Assembly (NCBI GenBank): GCA_021785355.1
Contig: JAJYFR010000004.1
Span: 7,184 to 71,183, forward strand
Reading direction: 5' to 3'
DNA length: 64,000 bases
DNA from: a bacterium
Lineage (GTDB): Bacteria > Patescibacteriota > Dojkabacteria > JAKAPS01 > JAJZLI01
The position numbers were made by a program, and so were the translations under genes. The notes beneath the pieces were generated by a model. It was not told the DNA's origin, searched no databases, and saw nothing but the letters and a program-made list of their open reading frames with translations. Below, one piece after another: positions 22,015-64,000 of the stretch (its first letter is position 1; each line of letters starts with the position of its first letter).

Positions 22015-22016
22015 AT

Positions 22017-23703: not shown

Positions 23704-23791
23704 TATTCTCTATTTATTTGAATAGGAGTGTTTTTTATAAAACAAATCTTTTCTGATTGAAAAATTTTTACTAAAAGTATAGCATATTAAT

Positions 23792-35031: not shown

Positions 35032-35059
35032 ATTTAATATCTTACATTATTTTTTGAGT

Positions 35060-36926: not shown

Positions 36927-36927
36927 T

Positions 36928-39086: not shown

Positions 39087-39139
39087 ATATAAAATATATA
39101 GATTTTAAAAAGTAAAATCAAGTATGATATAATATATTT

Positions 39140-42485: not shown

Positions 42486-44139
42486 CTCTTAATACTTCTT
42501 CAATAGAAGTTATACCTTCTATTGCTTTTGCCAGACCATCTTCAACCATTAAACTCATTCCTTTTTCTTGTGCCATTTTTTGTATTTCTTCTGAAGTAGC
42601 TTTATGTGTTATAAGAGATTTCATTTCGTCATCTACTTGTAGTATTTCATAAATACCTATTCTTCCTTTATATCCATTAGTACAGTATTCACAACCTACA
42701 GCTTGATAAAATTTAGTATTGGTTATTTTCTTATCGACACCTTTCTTTTTATATTGTTCTTCTAATATTTTTAATACTTTACTGTCCATGGAATATTCTT
42801 TTTTGCATGTATTACATAATTTTCTAACTAATCTTTGCGCAATTACAACATTAAGAGTAGATGCAACCAAAAATGATTCTATTTGCATATCTATTAATCT
42901 AGGGATTGCTCCTGATGCATCATTTGTATGGAGAGTAGATAAAACTAAATGTCCTGTCATAGCTGCATTTATAGATATATCTGCAGTTTCATTGTCTCTT
43001 ATTTCTCCTACCATTATAATATCAGGGTCTTGTCTTAAAAAAGATCTTAAACCACTTGCAAAAGTAAGCCCAATAGAAGTATTAACTTGTGTCTGATTTA
43101 CTCTAGGCATGCTGTACTCAATAGGATCCTCTATTGTATCAAGATTAACCTCTGGTGTATTTAACTGAGAGAGAATAGTATAGAGTGTTGTACTTTTTCC
43201 TGAACCTGTTGGTCCTGTTACAAGAATCATTCCCACAGTTCTTTTGATAGAATCTTTTATTATTTCTAAATCTCTTCCTCTAAATCCTAAAGCTTCAAGG
43301 TTATATGATTTTGCATTATCTTCTAATAATCTTGCTACTAAAACCTCTCCAAAATATACTGGCATTATTGATATTCTGAAAGAGATAAATTGATTATCTA
43401 TACTAATTTTAAATCTACCATCCTGAGGAAGTCTATGTTCATCTATTTTCAAATTAGAAAGTATTTTAATTCTGGCTATTACAGCTTTATGTATATCTAT
43501 AGAATAAGTAGCTTGGTCATGTAATATCCCATCAATTCTATATCGTATTATTGCTTTTTCTTCTAAAGGTTCTATATGAATATCTGAAGCTCCCATTGTT
43601 TTTGCATATTCCAGTATAGTATCTGTTATATTAATTATAGGGAGAGCTTCTGCATCTTCTCCTTTTAAACCTTTTGTTTCTTTTTCATTTTTTTCAATTA
43701 TATTTTTCAACTCTTCTTTTATTGAGGTCTTATACATCTTTAGTCCCTCAAAAAAAGACTTTTCTGTTATAAAATAAGGATCAATAATATATCCTGTTCC
43801 TTTCTTTATGAATTCTAAAGTGTTTATATCTCTAGGATTAGTCATTCCTATTTTTAGCTCAGAAGGAGTTTTTTCAAATGCAATTATCTTTTTTTCAATT
43901 GCAATTTTTTCAGGAATAATTTTTACAGTATCAGGATCAATACTTTTATGTATTAGTGATATATGAGGTATTGAAAATTCTTCTGTAACAAGTTCTCCTA
44001 ATTTATCTTCTGTTATTATGTTTCTACCTATAATAAGTTCTTCAATTGAACTTCCAATCTGTTTTGACTTATCTTCGAGCTTTTCATACTCTTCATTCGA
44101 GATATATTTATTTTTTATTAATAATTCTTTTAAATCCAT
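42472..44139 (-). CDS. pilB: Type IV pilus assembly ATPase PilB (GspE family)
   Basis: N-terminal GSPII_E_N-like domain, Walker A MILVTGPTGSGKSTTLY, Asp/His boxes, Walker B IIMVGEIRD, and a tetracysteine motif (CNTCKKEY...CEYCTNGYKGR); 555 aa. Confidence 0.9.
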   Translation of the reverse strand: MDLKELLIKNKYISNEEYEKLEDKSKQIGSSIEELIIGRNIITEDKLGELVTEEFSIPHISLIHKSIDPDTVKIIPEKIAIEKKIIAFEKTPSELKIGMTNPRDINTLEFIKKGTGYIIDPYFITEKSFFEGLKMYKTSIKEELKNIIEKNEKETKGLKGEDAEALPIINITDTILEYAKTMGASDIHIEPLEEKAIIRYRIDGILHDQATYSIDIHKAVIARIKILSNLKIDEHRLPQDGRFKISIDNQFISFRISIMPVYFGEVLVARLLEDNAKSYNLEALGFRGRDLEIIKDSIKRTVGMILVTGPTGSGKSTTLYTILSQLNTPEVNLDTIEDPIEYSMPRVNQTQVNTSIGLTFASGLRSFLRQDPDIIMVGEIRDNETADISINAAMTGHLVLSTLHTNDASGAIPRLIDMQIESFLVASTLNVVIAQRLVRKLCNTCKKEYSMDSKVLKILEEQYKKKGVDKKITNTKFYQAVGCEYCTNGYKGRIGIYEILQVDDEMKSLITHKATSEEIQKMAQEKGMSLMVEDGLAKAIEGITSIEEVLRVIKE

Positions 44140-46404: not shown

Positions 46405-46501
46405 ATATAAATTTATTATATTATAAAATAAAAAAAATACAATATTTTTTTCTTCTAAATATCTTTAAATATGGTGTCTATTGTGATATTGTATATTCTA
46501 T

Positions 46502-48439
46502 ATGGAAGGTCAAAATAACGAGCATGCAATACCTCAAAATATAATGAGCGTGGAGTTCAAGTTAATAGGGGATCTAACGATTAAACAGTTTGTTTTTGTT
46601 GCTATACCTTTACTACTTGGATTTCTGATGTTCGTTTTTAAAGTTAATAATTATATAACTTTAGTATTCACGGGTATCTTTTTATTAGCAGCTTTATTTA
46701 TAGATTTTATTCCTCTTGATGATAGACCTCTAGATGAGTGGATAATAAATTTTATAATTGCAGTGAAAAATCCTACACAAAGAATATGGGGAAAGAAACC
46801 TTCGTACCCCAATATTTTAAGAATTCCTAAAGCTATAATGCCAAAAGTTAAGAAAAATGAGGATGTAGCTACATTTCTCTATCAATCTCCTTTAGATACA
46901 AGTATACAAAGTTCGAGTGGTAATAGTGCTACAAAAATTTTAGATGATAAAGAAAAAAATTTTATGTCAAATATAGATAATATAAATGATTCTTTAGGAG
47001 ATAATGTCTCAATAAATGCAGGAGGAAGGCCTGTTATTTCTCCTGCTTTTAATATTCCTACAAGTAATAATTTTCAAAATAATCCTACAAAAGAAGATGT
47101 ATCAAGTAATACAAATCCTACAGAGAATGTACCTTTTACAACAGGAGATAATAGTAAGAATAAAGATGATAATTTACTTTCATCTAGAATAGGCAATGAA
47201 GATCCTAAAAATTTTTATAAACCTGAAAAGCTATATACTGAAGAAAGGGAAGAAGATTCTTCTGATGTAAAGAAAACAATACCATCAGTTGATGCCTCAA
47301 GTATGAACGCCAATCCTTTTTTTTCTCAAGATAATCCTTTTGGTCTTATTAATACAGGAAACCACGTTAACCCTGTACCTCAGCAAAGTAATGAAAGTTT
47401 CTCTACTGTACCTTCCACACCTGAGATTAAAGATGAAAATCCTAATTTAGATAAGGCAGATAAAATTGAGGATACTTCTTTTAGAGAAGGAGGTGTAAAT
47501 ATATTAGATCTATCTTCTCAAATGGATAGTGTTGAGGGTATTACAATTCCATCTGTTAATGAAAGTATTTCGAATCCATATGACAATGCTACTGTGGCAA
47601 CTCCTATTGATATTACAAAAGATTCTCCACCACAAGAAGAGACAGTGGAGCCTCAAATCTCAAATGTGTCTGAGAATGACAATATAGCTCCAACCCAAAT
47701 AGATAATGCACCTGTTGATGAAAGTATTAATCCATATGACAATGCTACTGTGGCAACTCCTATTGATATTGCAAAAGATACTCCACCACAAGAAGAGATA
47801 GTTGAACCTCAAATCTCAAATGTATCTGAGAATGATAATATAGCTCAGACCCAAATAGATAATGTACCTGTTGATGAAAGTATTAATCCATATGACAATG
47901 CTACTGTGGCAACTCCTATTGATATTGCAAAAGATACCTCACCACAAGAAGAGACAGTTGAACCTCAAATCTCAAATGTTATAAATAAGAGTCCAGAGAG
48001 TAATAACGAAATGAACGAAATGTTGGAAAGGTTGAAAAAGTTAGAGGAAGAAAATTCATCCTTAAAAAAGGCATTAGAAACAACATCAAGTACTCCTTCT
48101 CCTCAAAATACTAATTCTTCAATAAATAGCAATTTTGATATAAATGATTTTAAAAAATATCTTCCTGAATTTGTAAATAACCCTAATGTTATAGCAGGAG
48201 TATTAGTAGATAGCCAAGGAAATATCATTCAAGATGCAGTTATAATAATAAAAGATTCTTCTCAAAAACCTATTAGAGCTATAAAAAGTAATCAACTTGG
48301 ACAATTTTTTATTAGAACTCCATTACCTGATGGAAATTATACACTTGAAGTTACACATCCAAAGTTTGCATTTGAAAGTACTGGGGTGGACTTGACGGGT
48401 GTGATAAAAGAACCTATATTAATATATTCTAAGACTTAA
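46502..48439 (+). CDS. Membrane-anchored surface protein with tandem 52-aa repeats and C-terminal CarboxypepD_reg-like beta-sandwich domain
   Basis: 645 aa with two N-terminal TM helices and a Ser/Asn/Pro-rich region. A 52-aa unit (NPYDNATVATPIDI[TA]KD[ST]PPQEE[TI]VEPQISNVSENDNIA.TQIDN.PVDESI) occurs 2.6 times, followed by a coiled coil (EMLERLKKLEEENSSLKKALE). The C-terminus VIAGVLVDSQGNIIQDAVIIIKDSS...GQFFIRTPLPDGNYTLEVTHPKFAF matches the carboxypeptidase-regulatory-like pattern. Confidence 0.6.
   Translation: MEGQNNEHAIPQNIMSVEFKLIGDLTIKQFVFVAIPLLLGFLMFVFKVNNYITLVFTGIFLLAALFIDFIPLDDRPLDEWIINFIIAVKNPTQRIWGKKPSYPNILRIPKAIMPKVKKNEDVATFLYQSPLDTSIQSSSGNSATKILDDKEKNFMSNIDNINDSLGDNVSINAGGRPVISPAFNIPTSNNFQNNPTKEDVSSNTNPTENVPFTTGDNSKNKDDNLLSSRIGNEDPKNFYKPEKLYTEEREEDSSDVKKTIPSVDASSMNANPFFSQDNPFGLINTGNHVNPVPQQSNESFSTVPSTPEIKDENPNLDKADKIEDTSFREGGVNILDLSSQMDSVEGITIPSVNESISNPYDNATVATPIDITKDSPPQEETVEPQISNVSENDNIAPTQIDNAPVDESINPYDNATVATPIDIAKDTPPQEEIVEPQISNVSENDNIAQTQIDNVPVDESINPYDNATVATPIDIAKDTSPQEETVEPQISNVINKSPESNNEMNEMLERLKKLEEENSSLKKALETTSSTPSPQNTNSSINSNFDINDFKKYLPEFVNNPNVIAGVLVDSQGNIIQDAVIIIKDSSQKPIRAIKSNQLGQFFIRTPLPDGNYTLEVTHPKFAFESTGVDLTGVIKEPILIYSKT
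47574..47980. repeat. Tandem direct repeat, 156-bp unit x approx 2.6 copies (approx 93% identical), coding
   Basis: Units start at 47574, 47729 and 47885 (AATCCATATGACAATGCTACTGTGGCAACTCCTATTGATATT...). Differences between copies are mostly synonymous or conservative. Confidence 0.85.
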
Positions 48440-48442
48440 AAT

Positions 48443-49111
48443 ATGCAAAAAAATACACGTATTGTAGCTACAACTCAAGATCATCTAAGTATAGAAGATA
48501 TAAAGGATAATTTTGTTGTACTTAAAAATGGAAATGTATCTGTTGTTATAGAAACTTCTGCTGTAAATTTCTATCTTCTCTCAGAGGTTGAACAGAGTTC
48601 TAAGATATATGCTTTTGCTGGGTTGCTTAACTCTTTAGGTTTTTATATACAGGTTATGATTCACACAGAAAATGTTGATATATCTGCATATCTTAAACAT
48701 ATAGATGAATATAAAGTAAAAGAAAAGGATCCTAAAATTAAATATCAGATAGATATATATAGAAAATTTGTAAAAGACCTTATTGTTAAGAATAATGTTT
48801 TAGATAAACATTTTTATATAGTTATACCTTATATGACTCAAATGCCTAAAAAACCTGGTTTTATAGATAAATTTATGAAAAAAGATTCAGCACCATCTTT
48901 TGATGTAGATCAATTAATACTTCAAGCTTCATCGAGACTTTTGCCAAGGAGAGATCATGTAATAAGGCAACTTTCAAGGATGGGATTAAAATCAAAGCAG
49001 TTAGATAGTTCAGATTTGATAAAACTTTTTTATAATATCTATAATCCTGCAAATTCTAAAATAAGAAGAAATTTCGATGAATATACTTCTCCAATAGTTA
49101 GTTCTCAATAA
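48443..49111 (+). CDS. Hypothetical protein paired with VirB4-like ATPase (possible split-off VirB4 N-terminal domain)
   Basis: 222 aa ending 2 nt before the ATPase gene. The N-terminal region (DHLSIEDIKDNFVVLKNGNVSVVIE...LLNSLGFYIQVMIH) is similar to ORF 56152..56670 (DILGIEEDLIILKNSVYSKIFEI...FLISLKIDIQFIAI), which likewise precedes the second VirB4-like gene. Confidence 0.45.
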   Translation: MQKNTRIVATTQDHLSIEDIKDNFVVLKNGNVSVVIETSAVNFYLLSEVEQSSKIYAFAGLLNSLGFYIQVMIHTENVDISAYLKHIDEYKVKEKDPKIKYQIDIYRKFVKDLIVKNNVLDKHFYIVIPYMTQMPKKPGFIDKFMKKDSAPSFDVDQLILQASSRLLPRRDHVIRQLSRMGLKSKQLDSSDLIKLFYNIYNPANSKIRRNFDEYTSPIVSSQ

Positions 49112-49113
49112 TA

Positions 49114-51126
49114 ATGAAAATACCACAAATACTTATAAAAAAAGAAGAGAAAACAAATGAAGTACAACAGCCTATACAGGAAGTTTCTCCTAATAGTAAT
49201 ATAGATCCTACTTCTTTGTTTGGAATGGGCATGAATAGTATTAAGGATATAATAGCACCTTCTTCTCTAGAGGTGGATTTTTCTTATGTTAAGATAGGAG
49301 ATAAATATTATAAAACATATTTTGTATTAGCTTATCCTAGGTATGTTGTTCCTAATTGGCTTTCTCCATTAATAACATTTGAACATTCTATTGATATAAG
49401 TATGTTCTATTATCCTATTAGTGCAGCAGCAGTACTTTCTCAATTAAGAAAGAAAATTGCGGAAATGGAAGCAAGTACAAATAATTTGATTGAATCTGGA
49501 AAAGTAATGGATCCTAATTTAAAAGTTGCGCTTTCAGATGCAAAAGAATTACAAGAAAACTTAGCAAAGGGTTCAGAGAGATATTTTCATTTTGCCTTAT
49601 ATGTCACAGTTAGAGCAGATACAGAGGAAGAATTATCTGATATATCAAAGAATCTTGAATCTACTATGGGGGCAATGTCTTTAATAATCAAACCTACTAC
49701 TCTCCAGATGGAGGAAGGTTTTCTTTCAACATTACCAACTTCTAGCGATAACCTATATTATACTCATAATATGGATACAACTTCTATTGCGACTACATTT
49801 CCTTTTGTATCCTCGGAGTTAACTTCAGATAACGGTGTTTTATATGGGATAAATAAAGCAAATAAGAGTCTTGTTGTATTTGATAGATTTGAATTAGAAA
49901 ATGCAAATTCTGTAATTTTTGCAAAATCTGGAGCAGGAAAAAGTTACTTAGTAAAATTAGAAGCTCTTCGTTCATTAATGTTAGGAACACAAATAATAAT
50001 AATAGATCCAGAGAGTGAATATTTTACTTTATGTAAAGCTTTAAATGGGGCTTATGTTACATTTTCTCAAGATGGTAATTCAAAGATAAATCCATTTGAT
50101 CTTTCTGGTATTTATGAAGAGGGGGAGGATGAATTAAGGTTTAAAATACTTTCTTTACACGGATTGTTTAAGGTTATGTTAGGGGATGAAGGTGGTATTA
50201 GTAGTATGGAAAATGCAATTTTAGATAAGGCTTTAATTTTAACATATAGAGATAAAGGGATAACTTTTGATCCAGAAACTCAAGTGAAAGCGCCTCCTTT
50301 AATGGAAGATTTATATAAAATATTACTTTCTATGGAAGAGGCTGAAGCTCATTCTCTTGCTCAAAGATTAGAAAAATATGTAAAAGGGTCTGCTTCTGGA
50401 ATTTTTGATCAACAAACTAATATAGATCTAAATAATAATTTCATGGTCTTTTCCATAAAAGATTTATCAGATGAATTAAGACCTGTAGCTATGTTTTTAA
50501 TGTTAGATTTCATATGGACAAGAGTAAAAAGAGATTTAAGAAAAAGAATTTTTATAATAGATGAAGCTTGGATGTTAATGAAATATCCTGACTCTGCACA
50601 ATTTGTATATGCTGTAGCAAAGAGAGCTAGAAAATATTATCTAGGGCTTACTACAGTGTCTCAAGATGTTGATGATTTTATCTCAAATGAATATGGTAAA
50701 GCTGTTGTAACAAATTCTTCAATTCAAATTCTTTTAAGGCAGTCTCCTACGGCAATAGATCATTTATCTGAAGTATTTTATCTTTCTGCTGGAGAAAAAA
50801 ATCTTCTTTTGAGTGCAGATGTTGGGGAAGGAATCTTTTTTGTTGGAACAAATCATGTTGCAATACAGATACTTTCAAGTGAGTATGAAAATAGACTTAT
50901 AACAACAAATCCTGAAGAAATTTTAAAAATGCAGCAAGATGCATCTTCTTTAGGAAGGATAGTTCCTAATAATTTTGTAAATTCAAATTTTGATAGTAAC
51001 GATAATACTAAATTATTTCAAAGTGATATGATAAATATGAATAAGGAAGAGACAGGAGAAGTTTCTAAAGATGAAGAAGATTCAACCTTATCTCAAAATT
51101 CTAGTACAGAAGGAATAGTTAATTAA
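49114..51126 (+). CDS. VirB4/TraC/TrbE-family conjugation/T4SS ATPase (FtsK-HerA superfamily), copy 1
   Basis: Walker A VIFAKSGAGKSYLVK, downstream IIIDPESEY motif, Walker B RKRIFIIDEAWMLM, and later VSQDVDDF; 670 aa; N-terminal region YYKTYFVLAYPRYV shared with copy 2 (YFKTYYVAEYPSEV). Confidence 0.7.
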   Translation: MKIPQILIKKEEKTNEVQQPIQEVSPNSNIDPTSLFGMGMNSIKDIIAPSSLEVDFSYVKIGDKYYKTYFVLAYPRYVVPNWLSPLITFEHSIDISMFYYPISAAAVLSQLRKKIAEMEASTNNLIESGKVMDPNLKVALSDAKELQENLAKGSERYFHFALYVTVRADTEEELSDISKNLESTMGAMSLIIKPTTLQMEEGFLSTLPTSSDNLYYTHNMDTTSIATTFPFVSSELTSDNGVLYGINKANKSLVVFDRFELENANSVIFAKSGAGKSYLVKLEALRSLMLGTQIIIIDPESEYFTLCKALNGAYVTFSQDGNSKINPFDLSGIYEEGEDELRFKILSLHGLFKVMLGDEGGISSMENAILDKALILTYRDKGITFDPETQVKAPPLMEDLYKILLSMEEAEAHSLAQRLEKYVKGSASGIFDQQTNIDLNNNFMVFSIKDLSDELRPVAMFLMLDFIWTRVKRDLRKRIFIIDEAWMLMKYPDSAQFVYAVAKRARKYYLGLTTVSQDVDDFISNEYGKAVVTNSSIQILLRQSPTAIDHLSEVFYLSAGEKNLLLSADVGEGIFFVGTNHVAIQILSSEYENRLITTNPEEILKMQQDASSLGRIVPNNFVNSNFDSNDNTKLFQSDMINMNKEETGEVSKDEEDSTLSQNSSTEGIVN

Positions 51127-51256
51127 AAATAAAAAATCCATCAAGATGCAATCACTTATAGGCCTTCTTTTATTAATATTAAATTTCAATATATATGTAA
51201 TTTATATATAGAAATATAGCCTTAAATTGATATTTTTCCACGTATAATATGGCGTA

Positions 51257-51285
51257 TTGACAAAAATTATAGGCCATAATATAAT
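51257..51285 (+). promoter_or_regulatory. Consensus sigma70-type promoter internal to the T4SS-like locus
   Basis: TTGACA(51257-51262), exactly 17 nt, TATAAT(51280-51285); 35 nt upstream of ORF 51320. Confidence 0.45.
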
Positions 51286-51319
51286 CTGGTTTATATAAAT
51301 ATATTTTAGATTATAAATA

Positions 51320-51625
51320 ATGAATACTAAAAATTTAGATAATTATATAGACCAATTAGTAGTAGATAAAGGTTTTGATTTAGGTAATGTTGATTTAGTA
51401 AAAAGGGTTAAAGATGAGTTATATGATCTTGTAGAAGATGCTATAAACTCAGAGATAGTAAATAAATTATCTCAAGATAAAATATCTGAATTTGAAAAGT
51501 TATTTAATAACAATGTTTCTGACGAAGTTGTGGTATCTTTTCTCAAATCAAATATAGAAAATTTAGATCAAGTAATAGAATCAGTTTTATTAAATTTTAG
51601 AAATATATATTTAGATAATAATTAA
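51320..51625 (+). CDS. Small acidic hypothetical protein (101 aa)
   Basis: Complete ORF downstream of a consensus promoter, 2 nt before the 996-aa ORF. Confidence 0.45.
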   Translation: MNTKNLDNYIDQLVVDKGFDLGNVDLVKRVKDELYDLVEDAINSEIVNKLSQDKISEFEKLFNNNVSDEVVVSFLKSNIENLDQVIESVLLNFRNIYLDNN

Positions 51626-51627
51626 TT

Positions 51628-54618
51628 ATGGATATAAAAACAGAGGAACAGCAATCTTTAATAGTACAAGAAGTAGAGGACAGTATAAAAGATTTTGAAG
51701 TTATATTATCAGCAGAAGAAATTATTAATGAATATTTATATAAATTATCTTTAGGAGAAGAAGAAGATAGAGGTGATGAAAATAAGGTCTCTGTAGATGA
51801 AGGTTTAAATGAAACTGATACAACAAAAGATTTGCTTATTAAGAGGGATGAAAATAAAAATCCAAAAGTTTTGAATGAAGATGATCTTCTAAATATACAT
51901 ATTGTTGATATTAGTGATCAAACAAAAAGAAGAGCACATGACAATGCAAGAGAACAATTAACTGAAGAAAAAAATAAATTAACAGGAGTTGGTGGCATAG
52001 CAAAAAAATTAGGTAGATATGGATACTTTGAAGGTACAACTTATCAAAGATATAAAAAACAAGCACTTATAGAAGAATTATTAAAAGATACAGATGGTAA
52101 GACAGCAGAAAGATTTGAAGCAGGAAGCATTAGAACAGAGAGAAATACAGAGATAAGTGTTAAAGCTGCAGAAAGTGAAGAAGAAAAAACTTTGAAAGAA
52201 TTAATAATTAGTATGGCTAAAGGTGAAATTGAAGAAAGTGAATATATTGAATTAAAAAGGAAATTAATATCTGAATTATTTATTTCATCTTCTTTGAAAG
52301 AAAGTAAGAATACTGATTTTGAAAAATTTGAAGATAATATAGATAAATATATAGACCAAATTAAAGTATTAATAGATCATGGTAAAACAGTTGAAGATAT
52401 AAGAGATTTAATAACCTTAAACCTAGGTATAGCAAAAGATTTATCAATTACAAGAGTTGAATATAGTAAAACTGATAAAGTTTTAGAAGGTTTAAAAAGG
52501 CACAAAATTGCAGGGAAATTAGTTAATGAAACTGTTTTTGCAACAGGTGGATCTGTTTTAGGCAGAGTAGCTTTTAGCATAGCTTCTTCTAGAGCTGCAA
52601 CAATTGCTAGTTTTGGAGGAGCTGCTGTTGTAAGTTCTCTACTTTCAGCAGCTAAAGAAAAGCAAAGAATAAAAAGAGATAGGCAAATGCAGATTAGAGA
52701 TTATTCCGCAGGAAGATCAAATGGATTAGAAGGTAAAAGAAGAGAACAACTTCAGAGAACTGTATATGATTTAATGCCTATAAAAGATTCTTTTAATGAC
52801 CTTGTAGAATCATTTGATAAATTTAATAAAAGTATAGAGGGAGATAAGATTTCTTTTGAAAAGATGTTAAAAATAATTGGAGAGTATAGAGCAAGAAGGA
52901 TTGTATCTTTAGCTAGTGATATAGATCTATTTATATATTCTTCTTCAGAGAATATGCAAGAAGAGTTTAGTGACCTAGACTGGTATGTAAGATATGTTCA
53001 ATCTAAAATGCAAATATCAGAAAATCAAGATAAAATAAAATCAATATTGGGTGTTGATGATATTGATATAGAAGGTTTAATAGGGGAACAAATCGAAGAA
53101 TCTGTTAAAAATATTGAAGAAGATATTTCTCAAAAAGATTCAATATTTAGAGGTGTAAAATCTGCAAGAATAGGTAGATATGTAGCTTGGAATCTAGTAA
53201 CAGGACTTACAATAGGAGCTTTAGGACAAGGTGTAGTAAGAGAATTAATGGAGAAGCATGAAGAATTATTGAAAAATGGTGTTATAAAACAAGATTTTCT
53301 AGAAGGTCTTTTGAATAAATGGAATCAAGTAAAAATAAAGAAAACTACTTATATGCATAGTCCTAAAATAGCACTTAGATCAAAAGGTCGTGTTGGGGAA
53401 ATTTTTATGAATGGTAAAAAAATCCAAGAGGTTAAATTAAATAAAAATGGAAGCCTTACTTCAAGTTCAATTCAAACTTTACAACAAAAAGGAATAGGAG
53501 TTAAAACTAGTACCGTTTATACAAGTTCTGGGGGAGAAGTTATGCGTAATAATAGTATAGTTGCTGGCAATACAAATGTTCAAAGAAATCTTTGGTATGA
53601 CAATAATAATGCGCAAGGAGTATATACTAAGAATGAATTAGGTATATGGTGGGGTTCTAATACTGGATATAATAGTAAAGGAGATGTAGTTTTCAATATT
53701 GCTAGTATGACAAACAAAGGTTCATATCAAGGAAATTCTTCTGTGGCAATACAAAATCTTATTGAAGAAGGAAAAATGAAAATCTGGATTACTGCTAGTA
53801 GATCTACTCAAAATAAAGCATATGTATTTAATGTGAATAGAAATGGTTTAGTAAATATAGATAAAAATTCTTTAGCATATAGATTATTCTCAAAAAGTAG
53901 TACAGGTCATGTTAAATTCAATGGTGCATTTGTTGAAGCTGTAGTTCCTCAAGCAACAACAAAACTAGGAACTCATATAGGAGATCCAGTTGCAACTTAT
54001 GTAGGTTCAAATACAGCTAATCCTATTATAAATAAAGAGACAATTACTACACTTTTTGAAAAGCCTACAAGATATATTAAACCAAAAACTCAAATAGGAT
54101 GGCCTTGGTTTATACCTGTTGTAGGAAGAACTCCTTTAGAAAAAGCAGAAATTAATTCTAATCAAGAAAATTCAGAAATACCTGGAAACTCATTGGCAAA
54201 ATCAAGAGAAGTAAACGATTTTAATCTTATAGGTGATATTGGAAGTATTAATAGTAGTACAGATGAAGATATAAGAGGACTTTTTAATGAACTTTATATT
54301 AATGACAAAGAAGAAAGTAAAGTTTCTAGAGTAACAAAAAGAGAGCAAGCTAGGTATGCTATATCAATGATTAAAGATTATTTTAAAGTTATGTCAGCAG
54401 AAGAAATAAAATTATTAAATGAATATTTAAAGAAACGTAAAATGAATAAAGATAAGTATGAGAATGAAAGAAAAGATCTATTTTCTGAGAATTTTCTACT
54501 TCAAGAATATGATACTTTTAAATCTAGATTTGAAAATGATGAGGCTTTCAGATTGGATGTTTTAAGAAAATGGGCAGAAGTGCATCTCTACTATATTAAT
54601 AATAAAGGTTCTATATAA
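51628..54618 (+). CDS. Large hypothetical membrane-associated protein (996 aa) of the T4SS-like locus
   Basis: Acidic coiled-coil-rich N-terminus; hydrophobic Gly/Ala/Ser-rich segments around residues 300-340 (GGSVLGRVAFSIASSRAATIASFGGAAVVSSLLSAA) and about 530 (VAWNLVTGLTIGALGQGVV); Asn/Gly/Ser/Thr-rich C-terminal approx 450 aa suggestive of an extracytoplasmic beta-rich domain. No ATPase or peptidase motif. Confidence 0.55.
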   Translation: MDIKTEEQQSLIVQEVEDSIKDFEVILSAEEIINEYLYKLSLGEEEDRGDENKVSVDEGLNETDTTKDLLIKRDENKNPKVLNEDDLLNIHIVDISDQTKRRAHDNAREQLTEEKNKLTGVGGIAKKLGRYGYFEGTTYQRYKKQALIEELLKDTDGKTAERFEAGSIRTERNTEISVKAAESEEEKTLKELIISMAKGEIEESEYIELKRKLISELFISSSLKESKNTDFEKFEDNIDKYIDQIKVLIDHGKTVEDIRDLITLNLGIAKDLSITRVEYSKTDKVLEGLKRHKIAGKLVNETVFATGGSVLGRVAFSIASSRAATIASFGGAAVVSSLLSAAKEKQRIKRDRQMQIRDYSAGRSNGLEGKRREQLQRTVYDLMPIKDSFNDLVESFDKFNKSIEGDKISFEKMLKIIGEYRARRIVSLASDIDLFIYSSSENMQEEFSDLDWYVRYVQSKMQISENQDKIKSILGVDDIDIEGLIGEQIEESVKNIEEDISQKDSIFRGVKSARIGRYVAWNLVTGLTIGALGQGVVRELMEKHEELLKNGVIKQDFLEGLLNKWNQVKIKKTTYMHSPKIALRSKGRVGEIFMNGKKIQEVKLNKNGSLTSSSIQTLQQKGIGVKTSTVYTSSGGEVMRNNSIVAGNTNVQRNLWYDNNNAQGVYTKNELGIWWGSNTGYNSKGDVVFNIASMTNKGSYQGNSSVAIQNLIEEGKMKIWITASRSTQNKAYVFNVNRNGLVNIDKNSLAYRLFSKSSTGHVKFNGAFVEAVVPQATTKLGTHIGDPVATYVGSNTANPIINKETITTLFEKPTRYIKPKTQIGWPWFIPVVGRTPLEKAEINSNQENSEIPGNSLAKSREVNDFNLIGDIGSINSSTDEDIRGLFNELYINDKEESKVSRVTKREQARYAISMIKDYFKVMSAEEIKLLNEYLKKRKMNKDKYENERKDLFSENFLLQEYDTFKSRFENDEAFRLDVLRKWAEVHLYYINNKGSI

Positions 54619-54714
54619 AAATCTTTGTTCATTTAACAATAAAAATGTTGCTATTAATAGAAAATTTAAGGTATTTTGATTTTATTTTATAAAACTTTTA
54701 AAATACTTTAAATT

Positions 54715-54957
54715 ATGCAACAGATTCCGGGACTAAATCAATTTGTTAATAATATAGCAGGTGTAATGATAACCACAGTAGAAACAGTCCTTATATTAAT
54801 AGTAATAGCATTTGGTATCCAGTTTATAATGTACTCCGATAATCCTCAAGAAAGATCTAGATTGATTAGAAGAATAATTTGGGTTTTAGTAGGACTTTTT
54901 ATCGTTATAGGTGCTCAAAATTTTACTACATTTCTACATGCGATTATTGGCGGTTAG
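54715..54957 (+). CDS. Small 2-TM protein, VirB2/TrbC pilin-like candidate
   Basis: 80 aa with two hydrophobic helices separated by a short polar loop (…VETVLILIVIAFGIQFIMYSDNPQERSRLIRRIIWVLVGLFIVIGA…); immediately upstream of the VirB6-like gene. Confidence 0.35.
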   Translation: MQQIPGLNQFVNNIAGVMITTVETVLILIVIAFGIQFIMYSDNPQERSRLIRRIIWVLVGLFIVIGAQNFTTFLHAIIGG

Positions 54958-55876
54958 TCTAATATTAATATTTCTTTTTTCAAGACCTGTATTTGCTCAA
55001 GGTACAAATTCTAATATTCTCAATTGCAATTCATCAATTTCTTTTTCCATAGATGGAGTTATGTGTTCTTTGGGGTATATAATAGATCAATTTACAGAAT
55101 TTACTCCTAATATTTTATCTAATAATGGATATGGAGGAAGTCTTGCAGGGATAGCTTTTAATCAATATACCCAAGGCACTGAGTATATTGCGTTTGCAAT
55201 AATACCGATACTTATATATTTATATATACTTAATTTTTTAGGTGAAGTATCTTTAGGTAAAACAGGTTTATCTCCACAGGATTTAATGTATAGTATTTTT
55301 ATGTCTGTATTAATATTAATACTTTCTCCTTATATTTTATCTATGCTTATAACATTTATTAATGTATTAGATAAATTTATAATTATTCATATTATACACT
55401 CATCTAATCCTAGTTTATTTCAAACAATTATTAATTCAATGAATCTTAGTAATTTTAATTCAGGTATATTTTCAGGCATAATTAATTATATTTTATACAT
55501 TCTTCTTATTATTGTTCTGTTTTTATTTTCATTTCAATTTATATTAAGATTTATTTTACTTTGGATATTAATACTTTTCTTTCCTTTTGGAGTTGCTTTG
55601 TCTATATACCCTCCATTTGGAAATATTCTAGGATCTATTCTGTCTAAAATTATGCAATTATTATTTATTCAACCTGCTTTTTTAATAGGTATATCTATTT
55701 TTATATTAATAGTTAATAATTTCTCTATTAATGTAGTTGAGAAATTTATCATCTCAATAGTTACATTATTCTCATTAGCGTTAATCCCTAATTTACTTAC
55801 AAGATATCTTAATTTTTCTTTTTCATTTGGACAAAGAAATATAAGGAGTATATTGAAATATGGATACAAAAGATAG
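54938..55876 (+). CDS. VirB6/TrbL-like polytopic membrane protein (paralog of 4467..6020)
   Basis: Probable start at ATG 54938 giving signal peptide MRLLAVSLILIFLFSRPVFAQG (the ORF track's 54911 start is in the same frame). Cys-containing ectodomain with FTEFTPNILSNNGYGGSLAGIAFNQYTQ, then at least six TM helices. Confidence 0.45.
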   Translation: MRLLAVSLILIFLFSRPVFAQGTNSNILNCNSSISFSIDGVMCSLGYIIDQFTEFTPNILSNNGYGGSLAGIAFNQYTQGTEYIAFAIIPILIYLYILNFLGEVSLGKTGLSPQDLMYSIFMSVLILILSPYILSMLITFINVLDKFIIIHIIHSSNPSLFQTIINSMNLSNFNSGIFSGIINYILYILLIIVLFLFSFQFILRFILLWILILFFPFGVALSIYPPFGNILGSILSKIMQLLFIQPAFLIGISIFILIVNNFSINVVEKFIISIVTLFSLALIPNLLTRYLNFSFSFGQRNIRSILKYGYKR

Positions 55877-56159
55877 TTGTAAAGTTTATAAAATAAAAAA
55901 TTTACATTCAGGTTATATTAATATAACTAACAATGTTTTAATATTTCTTTTCTCTATTATACCCATACTTTTTATCATATTTAGCCCTATTATTATTCAA
56001 TTAAAAATATTTTTATCTTCTTTTATTGTTATGACATTTTATGTTTTATTTAAACAAGAATATAAAGGTAATGTTTTATATTTGTATATATATTTTTTCA
56101 TTCTTTTTATGAAGAAAAAGAAAAAGTATTATTTTGAAGAGGAAAGTATAGATGTATAA
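55860..56159 (+). CDS. Small hydrophobic hypothetical protein (99 aa)
   Basis: Two TM helices; overlaps both flanking genes (operonic). Confidence 0.35.
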   Translation: MDTKDSCKVYKIKNLHSGYINITNNVLIFLFSIIPILFIIFSPIIIQLKIFLSSFIVMTFYVLFKQEYKGNVLYLYIYFFILFMKKKKKYYFEEESIDV

Positions 56160-56670
56160 TATAAAAAATTTTTATGACATATTAGGTATAGAAGAAGATT
56201 TAATAATTTTAAAAAATTCTGTATATTCTAAGATTTTTGAAATATTTCCTGACAATTTTATACTTTCTGATATAGAAGAAAGATATTCTTTTATAAAAAA
56301 ATATGAAGAGTTTTTAATATCTTTAAAAATAGATATTCAGTTTATTGCTATAAATTTTAAATTACCTCAAAAGGAGAATTTAAAATATTTATCTAATATA
56401 AAGGATAAAAAGTTTAATATGTTATATAAAGAGGCTTTATTAAATAAGGATAATGAAGTTCTTAGAAATTTATTTAATCAGAGATTTTTTTTAATACACT
56501 CTGTAAATAAAAAAAGAAAACATCTTGATTATCAAAAAGATTTATTAGAGGTTAAAAGTGTATTTTCTTCACAAGAAAAACAATTAAGATATATGTTATC
56601 TCAAATTCCTTTATCTTTCAAAAAAATGAATAAATCGGAGATAATTAAAATTTTAAAATTTTTTAGTTAA
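56152..56670 (+). CDS. Hypothetical protein paired with VirB4-like ATPase copy 2 (homolog of 48443..49111)
   Basis: 172 aa, ends 4 nt before the ATPase gene; see the similarity noted for 48443..49111. Confidence 0.45.
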   Translation: MYNIKNFYDILGIEEDLIILKNSVYSKIFEIFPDNFILSDIEERYSFIKKYEEFLISLKIDIQFIAINFKLPQKENLKYLSNIKDKKFNMLYKEALLNKDNEVLRNLFNQRFFLIHSVNKKRKHLDYQKDLLEVKSVFSSQEKQLRYMLSQIPLSFKKMNKSEIIKILKFFS

Positions 56671-56674
56671 AGTT

Positions 56675-58306
56675 ATGAAAATTCTTTATAAAAATAAACA
56701 AGATAAGATTTTCCCTAAAAAGATTGAAGAAAAGCCTTCTTTTATAAAGGTAAATAATAAGTATTTTAAAACTTATTATGTTGCAGAGTATCCTTCTGAA
56801 GTGTACAGTTTCTTTCTTTCAGACATATTTTCATTGGGAGGTAATATAATGGTCACTCAATATTTAAAAGCTGTAAAAAAAGATCAAATACTTAATTCTA
56901 TAAAAATGAAATTATCTGCCATTGAAGCCCAAAGACATTCTCGTTTCAAAAAAGGAAAGTTAAATGATATTACTTTAGATCTAGAAGTCTCAAATCTGGA
57001 GGATTTTAGAAGAATTCTTGTTTCTTCAAAAGAAACGAGTTTATCTTTTGGTTTTTATTTAACTTTATATTCTAAAAATTTATATAGATTAAAATCTTTA
57101 TCAAAAAATTTAGAACTACTTCTTTCTTCTAAATCTTTTAATATATATTCTCTAGATTTTAGACAAGATGCTGGGTATAAAACAATATTACCTTTTAATT
57201 TAAATATATCTTCGAAATCTTTTATTTTAAATACCAAATCTGTAGCATATATGACTCCTTTTGTTCTTAGTAACTATACTGATTATAGTGGTGTTATTTA
57301 TGGGGTAAATTCACTGACAAATTCAATGTTAATTTTTGATATATTTAAATATGAAAATTATAATGGTGTTGTTTTTGCCAAATCAGGTTCTGGAAAGAGT
57401 TTTTTTGCCAAAATAAATATAATAAGGTCACTTTCTAAAGGTATAAAGGTAGTTGTAATAGATCCAGAAGGAGAATATAAGGATCTATGTAAAAATTTAA
57501 AAGGTAAATATATTGATCTTTCTCATAAATCAAAAAATCATATAAATCCTTTTGATTTATATGAAGGAGAAAGTATTGATGAAAAAATACAATTCATAAA
57601 AAGTTTTTTACGAAAGACATGTACGTATTTCGATTCAAATGAAATAGATAAAGCTTTAATTGAGATTTTTAGAGATTTTAAGAATCCTACATTTGTAGAT
57701 TTATATAATTTTTTAGAGAAAAAGAATAGTAGAATGGCTCTAGAAATATTTAATATATCAAAAGGATCAAATTCAAATCTATATTCAAATGAAAGTAATA
57801 TTAAACTTTCATCTAAAGATAATCTAATAGTATTTGATATATCTTCACTAGATAGTTATAACATATCTTTAATGATGCATGTAGTGCTTAATTTTATTTG
57901 GAAATTTCATCAAAGACAAGATAAAAGATTAGTTTTTATAGATGAAGCTCATAGATTATTTGAGAATGAGGATTTGTTAAGTTATCTTAAAATGGTATCA
58001 AAAAGAGCAAGGAAATATAACTTAGGATTGATATATATAACTCAAGATATTGAAGATTTTATATCTTCAGAAGAAGGTAGGTCAATAATAGCAAATACAT
58101 CATTGAAGGTTTTAATGAAGCAAGAAAAGGTAAATGTAGAAAAGATAGGAAAAACATTTATGCTATCTTCTGAAGAAAAGGAAGCTTTATTAAAATTTTC
58201 ATTAGGAGAATCCTTGATACTTTTTGGAGATTTAAGAGTATATAATAAAGTCTTTGCTTTTGAATTTGAGGAAAAGATTTTTAATAAAAGGCAGGAGATT
58301 CCATAG
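56675..58306 (+). CDS. VirB4/TraC/TrbE-family conjugation/T4SS ATPase, copy 2 (shorter paralog)
   Basis: Walker A VVFAKSGSGKSFFAK, VVVIDPEGEY, Walker B KRLVFIDEAHRLF, ITQDIEDF; 543 aa. Confidence 0.7.
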   Translation: MKILYKNKQDKIFPKKIEEKPSFIKVNNKYFKTYYVAEYPSEVYSFFLSDIFSLGGNIMVTQYLKAVKKDQILNSIKMKLSAIEAQRHSRFKKGKLNDITLDLEVSNLEDFRRILVSSKETSLSFGFYLTLYSKNLYRLKSLSKNLELLLSSKSFNIYSLDFRQDAGYKTILPFNLNISSKSFILNTKSVAYMTPFVLSNYTDYSGVIYGVNSLTNSMLIFDIFKYENYNGVVFAKSGSGKSFFAKINIIRSLSKGIKVVVIDPEGEYKDLCKNLKGKYIDLSHKSKNHINPFDLYEGESIDEKIQFIKSFLRKTCTYFDSNEIDKALIEIFRDFKNPTFVDLYNFLEKKNSRMALEIFNISKGSNSNLYSNESNIKLSSKDNLIVFDISSLDSYNISLMMHVVLNFIWKFHQRQDKRLVFIDEAHRLFENEDLLSYLKMVSKRARKYNLGLIYITQDIEDFISSEEGRSIIANTSLKVLMKQEKVNVEKIGKTFMLSSEEKEALLKFSLGESLILFGDLRVYNKVFAFEFEEKIFNKRQEIP

Positions 58307-60948: not shown

Positions 60949-62019
60949 ATGAGTGATTATTATGAAATATTAGGTATCTCTAAAGATGCTGACGAGAAAG
61001 AGATAAAAAGAGCATATAGAAAGCTTGCTGGGGAATATCATCCAGATAAGAATAAAGCCTCAGATGCTGATAAAAAATTTAAAGAAATAAATGAAGCTTA
61101 TTCTGTACTTTCAGACCCAGTTAAAAGGCGTAACTACGATCAATTTGGTAATGCAGATTTTTCTTCCGGAGGTGGGCAAGGTTTTTCTGGTGCTGATTTC
61201 GGGGGAGCAAATTTTGGGGGATTTGAAGATATTTTTTCAGATTTTTTTGGTTCAAATTTTAATTTTTCAGGAAATTCTTCTGAGCAAAGAAGTAGAAGTA
61301 ATTCAGGTGAAGATATAGAGCTTATTTTAGAAGTTAATTTAAAAGATGTAATTTTTCCTACAGAAAAAGATATATCTTTTTATGCAATGAGTAAGTGTAG
61401 TTACTGTAATGGTACAGGATCCAAATCTGGAAAAGTAGATACTTGCAATACTTGTAAGGGTTTAGGAAAAGTGCAAAGAGTAACTCAAAGTTTTATTGGA
61501 AATATATCTATGGAAAGCATTTGTCCTACTTGTAAAGGTTCAGGGAAGGTAATAAAAGATAAGTGTAATCATTGTATTGGTTCAGGTAGGATAAAAGAGT
61601 TAAAGAAGATGAAAATAAAAATACCTCAAGGTGCTAGCAATGATACTGTTTTAAAATTTGCAGGATCTGGATCTGCGGGGTTAAATGGAGAAAAGAGTGG
61701 TGATTTATATTTAAACATAAAGATTTTAGAAGATAAGGAATATAAAAGAGAAGGGAATGATCTTCTAGGAACTCTTAATATAGATATCCCTACTGCAGTA
61801 TTAGGAGGAGTAGTAGATGTAAAAACTATTTATGATACTGTAAAATTAAAAATTCCTGCAGGGGTACAGGATGGAGAAAGATTTAAAATTAAAAATAAAG
61901 GGGTGCCTTCTTTACATGGTAGTAGAGTGGGTGATTATATAGTCAAGATAAAGGTTAATATTCCTAAAAAAATCAGCTATAAGGAGAGAGCTTTATATCA
62001 AGAATTAATGAAATTATAG
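60949..62019 (+). CDS. dnaJ: Molecular chaperone DnaJ
   Basis: J domain (DYYEILGISKDADEKEIKRAYRKLAGEYHPDKN), Gly/Phe-rich linker and four CxxCxGxG zinc-finger repeats (CSYCNGTG, CNTCKGLG, CPTCKGSG, CNHCIGSG). Confidence 0.95.
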   Translation: MSDYYEILGISKDADEKEIKRAYRKLAGEYHPDKNKASDADKKFKEINEAYSVLSDPVKRRNYDQFGNADFSSGGGQGFSGADFGGANFGGFEDIFSDFFGSNFNFSGNSSEQRSRSNSGEDIELILEVNLKDVIFPTEKDISFYAMSKCSYCNGTGSKSGKVDTCNTCKGLGKVQRVTQSFIGNISMESICPTCKGSGKVIKDKCNHCIGSGRIKELKKMKIKIPQGASNDTVLKFAGSGSAGLNGEKSGDLYLNIKILEDKEYKREGNDLLGTLNIDIPTAVLGGVVDVKTIYDTVKLKIPAGVQDGERFKIKNKGVPSLHGSRVGDYIVKIKVNIPKKISYKERALYQELMKL

Positions 62020-62541
62020 ATTTTTAAGCATTAAAAAATCTTCAAAAAGAATTTTTTTCATATTAGGATTATATAATCCTACTGCAGGATGATACATAGG
62101 TATTACTGTATATTGAGAAAGTTTAAATTTTTTTCCATGTATCTCAGATATTTTTTTATCTTTAAAAAAAAGACTCATAGATAATCTACCTAGAGTACAA
62201 ATTATTTTTGGTTTTATAATATCAAATTGTAATTTTAAAAAAGGGGAACATCTCTCTATTTCTATTTCATTAGGATCTCTATTTTCAGGTGGTCTACATT
62301 TTACAATATTTGTTATAAACACATCTTTTCTTGTAAGTTCTATACTTTCAAGCATTGAGTTTAGTAGAGAACCAGATCTTCCACAAAAAGGAATACCATC
62401 TCTATCCTCATTTGCTCCAGGGGCTTCTCCTATAAACATTATTTTAGCCTTAAGACTTCCTTCTCCTGGAACAGCATTATTTCTTGTTTTACATAAATTA
62501 CATTTTGTGCAATTTATAATTTCATTTCTTATACTATCCAT
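62014..62541 (-). CDS. udg: Uracil-DNA glycosylase, family 4 (Fe-S type)
   Basis: CTKCNLCKTRNNAVPGEGSLKAKIMFIGEAPGANEDRDGIPFCGRSGSLL (family-4 Cys cluster plus GEAPG motif) and C-terminal HPA motif (MYHPAVGLY). Confidence 0.9.
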   Translation of the reverse strand: MDSIRNEIINCTKCNLCKTRNNAVPGEGSLKAKIMFIGEAPGANEDRDGIPFCGRSGSLLNSMLESIELTRKDVFITNIVKCRPPENRDPNEIEIERCSPFLKLQFDIIKPKIICTLGRLSMSLFFKDKKISEIHGKKFKLSQYTVIPMYHPAVGLYNPNMKKILFEDFLMLKNL

Positions 62542-63569
62542 TAATATCCAATAGGTAAGAAATTTTTTAAATTCTCTGTGTTAATAGTTACTGTATCTAC
62601 ATGTTCTGTTAATATTTTCTTTGCAACTTTTCTTGCTATATTCATTAAGATTCTTTCTAATTCTCTTATTCCAGCTTCATAACCTAAAGGTCTTATAATA
62701 TCAGACCAAACATCATCATCTATTATGAGTTGTTTATTATTTAAACCAATATTTTTATAAACTTTTGGCATTATATAGTCTTTTGCTATTCTTAATTTTT
62801 CTTCATCTGTATATGAAGAAAATCTTATAATTTCTAATCTATCGAGTAAGGCTGATGATATTGTGCCCAAATTATTTGCAGTCAGAATAAACATTACTTT
62901 TGAAAGGTCAATTGGATAATCAATATAGTGATCTGAGAAAGAATTATTTTGTTCAGGGTCTAATATTTCTAAAAAAGTTGCCATAATAGATGATCTGACT
63001 GAACCATCGTCAGATATTTTATCAAATTCATCAAGAAGAATAACAGGATTATTACTGCCTGCTTTTATTAAAGCCTTAACAATATATCCTGGTTCTGCAT
63101 CAGGATTTACTTTTGATTGACCTCTAATTTCTAATACAGAAGAAAGTCCTCCCAAAGGAATTCTTACAAATTTTCTATTTAATGCTTCTGCAATAGATCT
63201 TGCAATTGTTGTTTTTCCTATACCTTGTAGACCAACAAAGCATAAAATTGGAGCTGGTTGTTCTTTGTTAAAATTCATAGAAGATAGGTATTCTAATATT
63301 CTTTCTTTAACATCTATTATTCCATAATGATTTTTATCTAAAATTTGTTTTGCATTTCCTATATCTAAATTATCAGAAGTACTTTTATTCCAAGGTACTT
63401 TTGTTATGGTATCTATATATTTAGATATAACTTCATAATCTGAGGAATAGCTTTGGAATTTAGAAGCTCTGTCTAATCTTGAAATTAAAGCCTCTATATT
63501 TTCTTTAAGGACAGGCGGTATATATATACTTTCAATTTTTTCTTTTAAATTTTTTATATCATCTATCAT
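62541..63569 (-). CDS. Stand-alone Lon-homologous AAA+ ATPase module (no LON N-terminal domain, no protease domain)
   Basis: Collinear with the Lon segment between the N domain and the peptidase domain: VPWNKSTSDNLDIGNAKQILDKNHYGIIDVKERILEYL (Lon helical region), Walker A ILCFVGLQGIGKTTIARSIAEAL, RKFVRIPLGGL, Walker B NPVILLDEFDKIS, sensor-1 FILTANN, Arg-finger LLDRLEIIRF, YTDEEKLRIAKDY and EAGIRELER. The ORF ends at ...NLKNFLPIGY, where Lon continues into the protease domain. 1-nt stop/start overlap with udg. Confidence 0.8.
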   Translation of the reverse strand: MIDDIKNLKEKIESIYIPPVLKENIEALISRLDRASKFQSYSSDYEVISKYIDTITKVPWNKSTSDNLDIGNAKQILDKNHYGIIDVKERILEYLSSMNFNKEQPAPILCFVGLQGIGKTTIARSIAEALNRKFVRIPLGGLSSVLEIRGQSKVNPDAEPGYIVKALIKAGSNNPVILLDEFDKISDDGSVRSSIMATFLEILDPEQNNSFSDHYIDYPIDLSKVMFILTANNLGTISSALLDRLEIIRFSSYTDEEKLRIAKDYIMPKVYKNIGLNNKQLIIDDDVWSDIIRPLGYEAGIRELERILMNIARKVAKKILTEHVDTVTINTENLKNFLPIGY

Positions 63570-64000
63570 TTCACTATTTGTCCTATATAATATCCTAGTA
63601 TAGCAGCTATCATTCCAATTATGAGAATCTCTAAAGCATTCTTTATTCTATCTTCTTTTCTATCTGCAGCTTTAAAGAAACCTATAAAAAATAATGATAT
63701 AGCAACTAGCAATATAGAAAATATTACGGCAATATTTGTTTTTAAAAATATGTAGGGTATTGTTGGTATAAGTGCTCCTATAAGGAAAGATATTCCCATA
63801 AATACTGCATCAGTTTTGGGTCTTATGGTTTTTTCAATATCTTCCCCTAATATTAAAGTTGAAGCAATACCTTTTTCTATATCAGGATATTTTGAAAGTA
63901 TTTGAACCATGTTATCCAAATCAGATTTCTCTACTCCTTGATCCTTTAAATTCTTTGATATAAGACTTCCGGCTTTTTCTTTAATATTTTCATCTTCAGT
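63566..64000 (-). CDS. VIT1/CCC1-family membrane protein, 3' portion (N-terminus beyond the window end)
   Basis: The frame stays open upstream of the TTG chosen by the ORF track (…TEDENIKEKAGSLISKNLKDQGVEKSDLDN-MVQIL…). The C-terminal TM region AVFMGISFLIGALIPTIPYIFL…LFFIGFFKAA…IGMIAAILGYYIGQ resembles the VIT-family C-terminus (…GGLIPLLPY…FGYVKG…). Confidence 0.5.
   Translation of the reverse strand, partial: TEDENIKEKAGSLISKNLKDQGVEKSDLDNMVQILSKYPDIEKGIASTLILGEDIEKTIRPKTDAVFMGISFLIGALIPTIPYIFLKTNIAVIFSILLVAISLFFIGFFKAADRKEDRIKNALEILIIGMIAAILGYYIGQIVK

Follow-up and report, generated by a model that had tools for sequence, protein, structure and literature searches.

A protease-less descendant of LonA, retained with an intact ATPase site, is encoded near one end of the 64,000-nucleotide stretch of Dojkabacteria DNA analysed here (contig JAJYFR010000004.1 of assembly GCA_021785355.1; hereafter the window, meaning the whole stretch). 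Three parts of LonA make up the 342-residue protein: the final three-helix bundle of the helical domain, followed by the alpha/beta domain and then the lid; it ends in the linker that in LonA leads to the peptidase. Sequence comparisons indicate that it belongs to a conserved Patescibacteria family of short ATPases descended from LonA, which is inherited vertically inside a housekeeping gene array in one branch of this group. As to its function, we favour a non-proteolytic role in which the protein uses ATP to remodel or hold a protein client, a reading to which we assign a probability of about 0.5.

Domain composition and structure

The gene and the elements of its product are listed below; the fractions refer to 207 distinct family sequences that were compared for conservation.

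62541..63569, minus strand: LonA-type AAA+ ATPase gene without N domain and without S16 peptidase, 342 amino acids (aa)
63270..63569, minus strand: helical N-terminal region, residues 1-100, with VPW, HYG and KERILEYL
63210..63233, minus strand: Walker A GLQGIGKT, residues 113-120; K119 in 206/207
63087..63125, minus strand: pore-loop-1 region RGQSKVNPDAEPG, residues 149-161; Asn155 at the invariant Lon Tyr position
63021..63038, minus strand: Walker B LLDEFD (D180, E181); both in 207/207
62874..62876, minus strand: sensor-1 Asn232; 205/205
62838..62840, minus strand: arginine finger Arg244, in trans; 204/204
62664-62666, minus strand: sensor-2 Arg302; 203/203
62601..62756, minus strand: Lon lid (small alpha) domain, residues 272-323, PF22667

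The open reading frame (ORF) runs from an ATG to a TAA and encodes a protein of 38.7 kDa with a calculated pI of 5.5. Pfam assigned to it the domains AAA (PF00004, residues 109-251, E 1.4e-20) and Lon_lid (residues 272-323, E 8.2e-13), yet neither Lon_C (PF05362) nor the LON N domain (PF02190). The NCBIfam model TIGR00763 ('endopeptidase La') matched over positions 255-571 of its 795 (E 8.5e-112) and scored 375.1 bits, under the full-length cut-off of 608.05; NF008053 gave 276.8 bits against a cut-off of 891, and neither NCBIfam nor Pfam has a curated model dedicated to the short family. The top PDB match was B. subtilis Lon (3m6a, E 1e-88, query residues 4-338), followed by Lon of M. taiwanensis, human and yeast mitochondrial Lon, and Lon of E. 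coli and Y. pestis, all of them LonA or LONP1. An initial reading of the bare sequence, the first-pass annotation, had aligned the ORF with the central ATPase segment of LonA on the strength of motifs such as VPWN, HYG and KERILEYL, and these motifs are present; the alignment was borne out by the Pfam, TIGR00763 and PDB results. The Pfam and TIGR00763 boundaries also agree with its proposal that the N and protease domains are missing and that the protein stops at the peptidase boundary. Its end lies 3-4 residues past the final Lon-aligned lid position, and udg begins at the stop codon. The same annotation had underestimated the part ahead of Walker A at about 90 residues: GLQGIGKT begins at residue 113, so that 112 residues precede it. 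It had also named no strand for the gene, which is encoded on the minus strand.

These N-terminal residues are themselves Lon-like. Residues 1-100 correspond to the C-terminal three-helix bundle of the LonA HI(CC) domain plus linker helices, the Lon alignment beginning at E. coli-type profile position about 249-255, and the AlphaFold2 model places helices at residues 2-14, 19-36, 43-57, 70-80 and 85-100. The model as a whole is confident (predicted local distance difference test score 90.3, predicted template modelling (TM) score 0.85). In Foldseek it matched the AAA+ modules of LONP1 and Lon with query-normalised TM-scores of 0.81-0.90, and it spans the solved E. coli Lon fragment 6N2I from end to end, with TM-scores of 0.86 (query) and 0.87 (target). 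The composition of three-helix bundle, alpha/beta domain and lid follows from the Lon AAA+ matches together with this end-to-end fit. We regard the fold, the domain boundaries and the intact ATPase site as established, as is the monophyly of the family described further below.

ATPase site and pore loop

Because K119, D180, E181, N232, R244 and R302 are near-invariant in the family (see the list above), its ATPase site, including the residues that act across subunit interfaces, is under strict selection. The Walker A motif has a signature of its own, G[LVI][QV]GxGKT, versus GPPGVGKT in canonical LonA.

Pore-loop-1 tells a different story. In a comparison set of 74 canonical LonA sequences the loop reads EIRGHRRTY[IV]GA[ML]PG, with H, R, T, Y and G invariant in 74/74, whereas the family has LRG[QR]S[RK]xx[PL][DE]AEPG and the window protein carries GQSKVNPD at the position of GHRRTY[IV]G. 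Position 155, where LonA has its Tyr, is occupied in the family by R (39), F (34), N (33), H (32), Y (27), E (9) and others, so that Phe or Tyr is found in 61 of the 207 sequences (29%). Around it, S152, R/K153, P156, D/E157, E159, P160 and G161 are conserved. Since these flanks are kept while the Tyr position varies, the loop is not in decay but rebuilt, with the aromatic paddle dispensable.

Extent and phylogeny of the family

We searched 5.8 billion proteins with the window protein and considered the top 120 matches, all of which are 340-456 aa long and combine AAA with Lon_lid in the absence of Lon_C. Their named sources are Dojkabacteria, Shapirobacteria, WWE3, Microgenomates and 'Patescibacteria group', and they are called 'AAA family ATPase' at NCBI and 'ATP-dependent Lon protease' at JGI. 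More than 200 distinct homologues, from these groups and from unclassified Patescibacteria, share this architecture. A profile built from 26 members, with the window protein as its first sequence, was run against 1.84 billion representatives at 50% identity and yielded 16 family clusters (427-554 bits, 263-669 aa), compared with at most 372 bits for canonical LonA. We delimited the family as single modules of ~290-670 aa with the signatures G[LVI][QV]GxGKT and [DE]AEPG and a score above 420 bits; the window protein falls within it and has both signatures. Nine cluster representatives, including the longest ones with N- or C-terminal extensions, showed no further domain in Pfam.

A neighbour-joining tree built from 64 family and 74 canonical sequences shows the short ATPases as a monophyletic group apart from canonical LonA. 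Their mean internal distance (0.41) is no smaller than the value for canonical LonA of many phyla (0.37). Among canonical LonA proteins, those of Clostridiales, Chloroflexi/Ktedonobacterales and Negativicutes lie closest to the family profile. The first-pass annotation had called the arrangement unusual; this holds for bacteria in general, but not in this branch of the Patescibacteria, where the protease-less form is the rule (more than 200 sequences in 16 clusters). Our literature search found no description of a protease-less Lon in Patescibacteria.

Three loci (L007, L008 and L010) stem from metagenome-assembled genomes titled 'uncultured Gammaproteobacteria bacterium' while carrying a Patescibacteria-type short ATPase, in L008 and L010 within the full Patescibacteria order rpsO-pnp-[ATPase]-rnj-ftsK; the titles look like mislabels.

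A separate observation from the profile search concerns about 30 representatives of 890-1700 aa (one of 3865 aa), in which two or three tandem Lon AAA+ plus lid modules precede a single Lon_C. Pfam confirmed this architecture for P0121, P0122, P0123, P0126, P0128, P0129 and P0140. In some of them (P0122, P0131) the two modules hardly differ, possibly through an artefact of assembly; in others they have diverged. We considered whether the short ATPase might be a split-off first ring of such proteins and rejected this on module scores and signatures: each tandem module scores 190-320 bits with the family profile, versus ~365 bits for canonical LonA, and, in place of the family signatures, shows GPPG in Walker A as canonical LonA does and Tyr in most pore loops. 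The tandem Lons had topped the profile ranking only because their module scores add up.

An intact gene rather than a lon remnant

A short ORF that covers only the middle of a longer protein might be the debris of a full-length lon, whether through frameshift, assembly error or pseudogenisation. We reject this explanation and give it next to no credence. The identical protein is encoded on 20 contigs, from two NCBI assemblies and from Logan and ENA assemblies of other samples, with the same VIT1-ATPase-UDG (uracil-DNA glycosylase) layout. The flanking genes abut the ORF and therefore leave no space for the lost domains. Besides, tblastn with the N-terminal and S16 C-terminal segments of 12 canonical LonA genes, run against the window and 7 loci, covering the whole window, 10 kb beyond it and the loci of four relatives, returned nothing better than E 0.058, so the window holds no leftover Lon N or C coding sequence. 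The relatives have the same short gene at this locus and not a full-length lon, and the shared architecture and invariant catalytic residues of the more than 200 homologues point the same way. The initial view of an intact gene has thus withstood its own refuting conditions, namely a frameshift or assembly error and a full-length lon at this locus in relatives. An alternative genetic code with UGA as a sense codon was also considered and found unsupported: under table 11, long conserved genes, among them dnaK, dnaA and pgi, are read without interruption.

Genomic neighbourhood

The gene lies between two others on the same strand.

63566..64000, minus strand: VIT1-family transporter gene, 3' part; its TGA overlaps the ATPase ATG
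62014..62541, minus strand: family-4 uracil-DNA glycosylase gene udg; its ATG shares a base with the ATPase stop

VIT1 is cut off by the window: its frame stays open up to base 64000, and the public gene call, which starts outside the window, gives a product of 218 aa. The ATPase start codon (63569-63567) overlaps the VIT1 stop codon (63568-63566) as ATGA, and the ATPase TAA (62543-62541) has one base in common with the udg ATG (62541-62539) as TAATG. These coordinates confirm both overlaps that had been noted at first reading, and in this genome the ATPase gene is probably co-translated with the transporter and glycosylase genes. The assignment of udg to family-4 UDG rests on TIGR00758 (208.6 bits, cut-off 125.3). 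A dnaJ gene on the opposite strand (60949-62019) converges on udg, the two gene ends overlapping by 6 nt.

For comparison we assembled 92 other loci: 80 metagenome loci, eight relatives for which public gene calls exist and four GTDB genome loci. The metagenome loci were retrieved with a family-specific motif alignment; an earlier scan of genome contigs by whole-length alignment had been swamped by canonical Lon, with family members at only 4 of 80 loci. The consensus order is nusA-infB-(DHH or unknown)-rpsO-pnp-[ATPase]-(small variable ORF)-udg-rnj-ftsK-HTH (helix-turn-helix gene). Of the 80 metagenome loci, 68 have a gene upstream of the ATPase, and in 50 of these the immediate upstream neighbour is PNPase; the immediate downstream gene is UDG in 34 loci and RNase J in 12. 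Counted at any position, UDG occurs in 56 loci, RNase J in 57 and PNPase in 64. Many relatives thus have udg directly 3' of the ATPase gene, and eight metagenome loci even share the one-base stop/start overlap seen in the window. Complete family ORFs in this set measure 289-394 aa. A Lon_C or Lon N domain was found within 10 kb on either side in none of the 80 loci, nor did the Pfam tables of 8 further loci contain one; across all 92 loci neither domain occurs within about 10 kb of the gene.

Insertions between the ATPase gene and udg vary from locus to locus. Nine metagenome loci (L109, L123, L126, L131, L158, L162, L163, L165 and L173) have a calcineurin-like metallophosphoesterase ORF (Metallophos_2) of 141-170 aa there, L087 has a NUDIX gene and three loci have a DUF4202-like ORF.

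The sub-clade of the window carries nusA-infB-DHH in reverse orientation and has gained VIT1 upstream of the ATPase. Here udg is adjacent, and nusA, infB and dnaJ are close by. Because homologues of PNPase and RNase J went undetected in the window and 10 kb beyond (74 kb), the conserved array must have been rearranged in this genome. A close relative (L092) is rearranged in the same way; its pnp lies 4.5 kb off and its udg is not adjacent. In L088 none of pnp, rnj and udg is nearby. Just past the high end of the window (L001, 404-3486), DHH-infB-nusA is flanked by an ABC ATPase and two insertion sequence transposase genes (DDE_Tnp_1), at the site where relatives carry rpsO-pnp. Two of the relatives, L090 and L093, have dnaJ within the conserved array, next to nusA on its upstream side.

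Other features of the window

The rest of the window (G+C ~27%) includes dnaA, dnaN, hrcA-grpE-dnaK and genes for type IV pili, type IV secretion and sortase, a content typical of a Patescibacteria (Candidate Phyla Radiation) genome. dnaA (8437-9771) and dnaN (10081-11217) coincide with a sign change of the GC skew near 8 kb, a very AT-rich stretch (19-22% G+C at 10-16 kb) lies close to them, and this is probably the replication origin region. The hrcA-grpE-dnaK cluster occupies 15697-18908, with dnaJ encoded apart. Pentose-phosphate genes of the oxidative and non-oxidative branches are clustered at 21070-28376 (6-phosphogluconate dehydrogenase, transaldolase, glucose-6-phosphate dehydrogenase, phosphoglucose isomerase). 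Secretion-type clusters are located at about 31900-39100, 42472-44139 and 46500-58300; they comprise a large type IV pilus cluster (PilM, T2SSF, T2SSE, N_methyl pilin) and a type IV secretion-like cluster (PrgI-like, TraC-like, two VirB4/TraG-type ATPases, TrbC-like pilin), the latter with a 996-aa ORF (51628-54618) that has no Pfam match. Further ORFs of 289-662 aa without Pfam match (E 1e-4 or 1e-5) lie at 4467-6020, 13552-15540, 19431-20384, 24462-25520 and 29569-30438; the 317-aa ORF at 19431-20384 has no called gene product in the public collection.

Discussion

We take the family to descend from a LonA that lost its substrate-binding N domain and its S16 peptidase and retained only the three-helix bundle and the AAA+ module. 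The remaining ATPase would assemble into a ring, hydrolyse ATP and use it to remodel or hold a protein client without proteolysis, and not act as a processive Lon-type unfoldase. Its pore-loop-1 has been remade into the conserved S-[RK]-x-x-P-[DE]-A-E-P-G, where a substrate-gripping Tyr is dispensable. Formation of a ring (hexamer) and ATP hydrolysis are suggested because the trans-acting Arg finger and the sensor-2 Arg, relevant only in an oligomer, are invariant. A further basis is the packing of the equivalent fragment of E. coli Lon: residues 235-584 (PDB 6N2I), obtained by limited proteolysis, form an open helical hexamer in the crystal (PMC6722904). As the pore loop has been rebuilt without a conserved aromatic residue, the protein is unlikely to be a canonical Lon-type polypeptide translocase. 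The first-pass annotation had raised a role as unfoldase or chaperone; such a role is not demonstrated, and the loss of the conserved Tyr argues against an unfoldase of the canonical Lon type.

Several points weigh against this proposal. Truncation of the N-terminal region or of the P domain deprives canonical LonA of activity, and oligomerisation would here have to proceed without a peptidase ring. About 29% of the family keep Phe or Tyr in the pore loop, so that threading may still occur in the family as a whole; a peptidase partner, be it S16, ClpP-like or other, may be encoded at a distance; and the conserved pnp, udg and rnj neighbourhood could point to a nucleic-acid-related role. Besides, N-terminal truncations of Lon often disrupt activity (PMC6722904).

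The search for a partner leads to the idea of a split Lon protease, in which the ATPase would deliver substrates in trans to a stand-alone S16, a ClpP- or HslV-like or another self-compartmentalised peptidase encoded elsewhere. The protein ends exactly at the linker between lid and peptidase, a linker-like tail (...FLPxxxGxxS) is kept in some members, and the ATPase site is wholly intact. Two-component AAA+ proteases are also well established, ClpX serving ClpP and HslU serving HslV. However, no S16 or other plausible cytosolic partner peptidase adjoins the gene in the window or at the 92 other loci, nor was an S16 seen in the 10 kb beyond the window, so the separately encoded peptidase that the first-pass annotation had envisaged did not come to light there. 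An M16 peptidase gene lies downstream of rnj in only four loci. The Lon AAA+ module is not known to carry a docking element for a separate peptidase, and the loss of the pore-loop Tyr in most members would be unexpected in a translocase that feeds a protease. Taken together, we consider a split protease unlikely.

The gene order with PNPase, UDG and RNase J, strongly conserved as it is, invites another explanation, namely a nucleic-acid-linked ATPase that acts with one or more of these neighbours. It might assemble or remodel an RNA-degradation or DNA-repair complex, or be a DNA-associated ATPase that exploits the DNA affinity of LonA. LonA is indeed a DNA-binding protease, and RuvB, of the same AAA+ clade, acts on DNA. 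Yet the entire nusA-infB-rpsO-pnp...rnj-ftsK block is a conserved housekeeping array, with a similar order in Bacillus, and the adjacency may therefore mean inherited gene order and not function. The synteny is moreover broken in the present genome (pnp and rnj being absent from 74 kb), in L092 and in L088, and neither the acidic protein (pI 5.5) nor the conserved Asp/Glu in its pore loop is suggestive of nucleic-acid threading. We find such a role quite doubtful. With similar reserve we regard a bolder version of the non-proteolytic reading, in which the ATPase, with its acidic, rebuilt pore loop, has a new client or partner and replaces Lon in this Patescibacteria branch. Possible partners would be PNPase, UDG or RNase J, or the ATPase might dock as an extra ring on another machine. 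This replacement of Lon strikes us as improbable; if true, it would amount to a new functional class in the Lon lineage.

Whichever function applies, the family bears on how Lon is understood. Lon is usually viewed as an inseparable fusion of ATPase and peptidase, and laboratory truncations suggest that its isolated ATPase part is a poor enzyme; a bacterial lineage with tiny genomes nonetheless keeps exactly this part, with all catalytic ATPase residues and under strong selection. Retention spans a sequence divergence as large as that between Lon proteins of different phyla, while the substrate-gripping loop has been rewritten. The function of a protease-less Lon would thus show what the Lon motor does without its protease, and it bears on protein quality control or nucleic-acid turnover in ultra-small bacteria with a reduced toolkit. 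In practical terms, the JGI/IMG label 'ATP-dependent Lon protease' on several members over-predicts the proteolytic capacity of the genomes concerned.

Comparison with known systems

The closest counterpart is the LonA protease itself. Both share the three-helix bundle, the AAA+ alpha/beta domain and the Lon lid, structure-based alignments give 38-43% identity between the window protein and the solved AAA+ modules of LonA and LONP1, and Walker A and B, sensor-1, Arg finger and sensor-2 are conserved. The short ATPase differs in lacking the LON N domain and the S16 Ser-Lys peptidase, in having GLQG instead of GPPG in Walker A, and in the replacement of GHRRTY[IV]G with loss of the Tyr. It also forms a separate clade, and its gene is positioned between pnp and udg/rnj. 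The E. coli fragment 6N2I has near-identical boundaries, query residues 3-339 aligning with chain residues 9-340; that fragment is artificial, whereas the window protein is natural, evolutionarily maintained and endowed with signatures of its own.

Other AAA+ systems are more remote. The Lon-type module, ClpX and HslU belong to the same HCLR clade, and as in ClpX/ClpP and HslU/HslV the ATPase is encoded apart from any peptidase. Unlike ClpX and HslU, the short ATPase has no IGF-loop or HslU-type docking element and no identified partner peptidase, and the pore-loop aromatic that they conserve is not conserved in it. It does not fit ClpB/Hsp104, having a single AAA+ module and scoring 14.5 bits with the ClpB model TIGR03346. 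The candidate defence-system ATPase DolB of PADLOC was rejected as well: the match is weak (66.9 bits, E 4.8e-19, residues 61-319) and far below the 375 bits obtained with Lon, and the neighbours are housekeeping genes and not a defence island.

Within the Lon lineage, neither LonB nor LonC accommodates the protein, since only LonA models and structures match it, the LonA three-helix bundle is present and a peptidase is not. LonC, a Lon-like protease whose ATPase is inactive, is likewise a branch of Lon with a single remaining activity. There the peptidase was kept and ATPase activity lost; the short ATPase is its mirror image, keeping the ATPase site and losing the peptidase.

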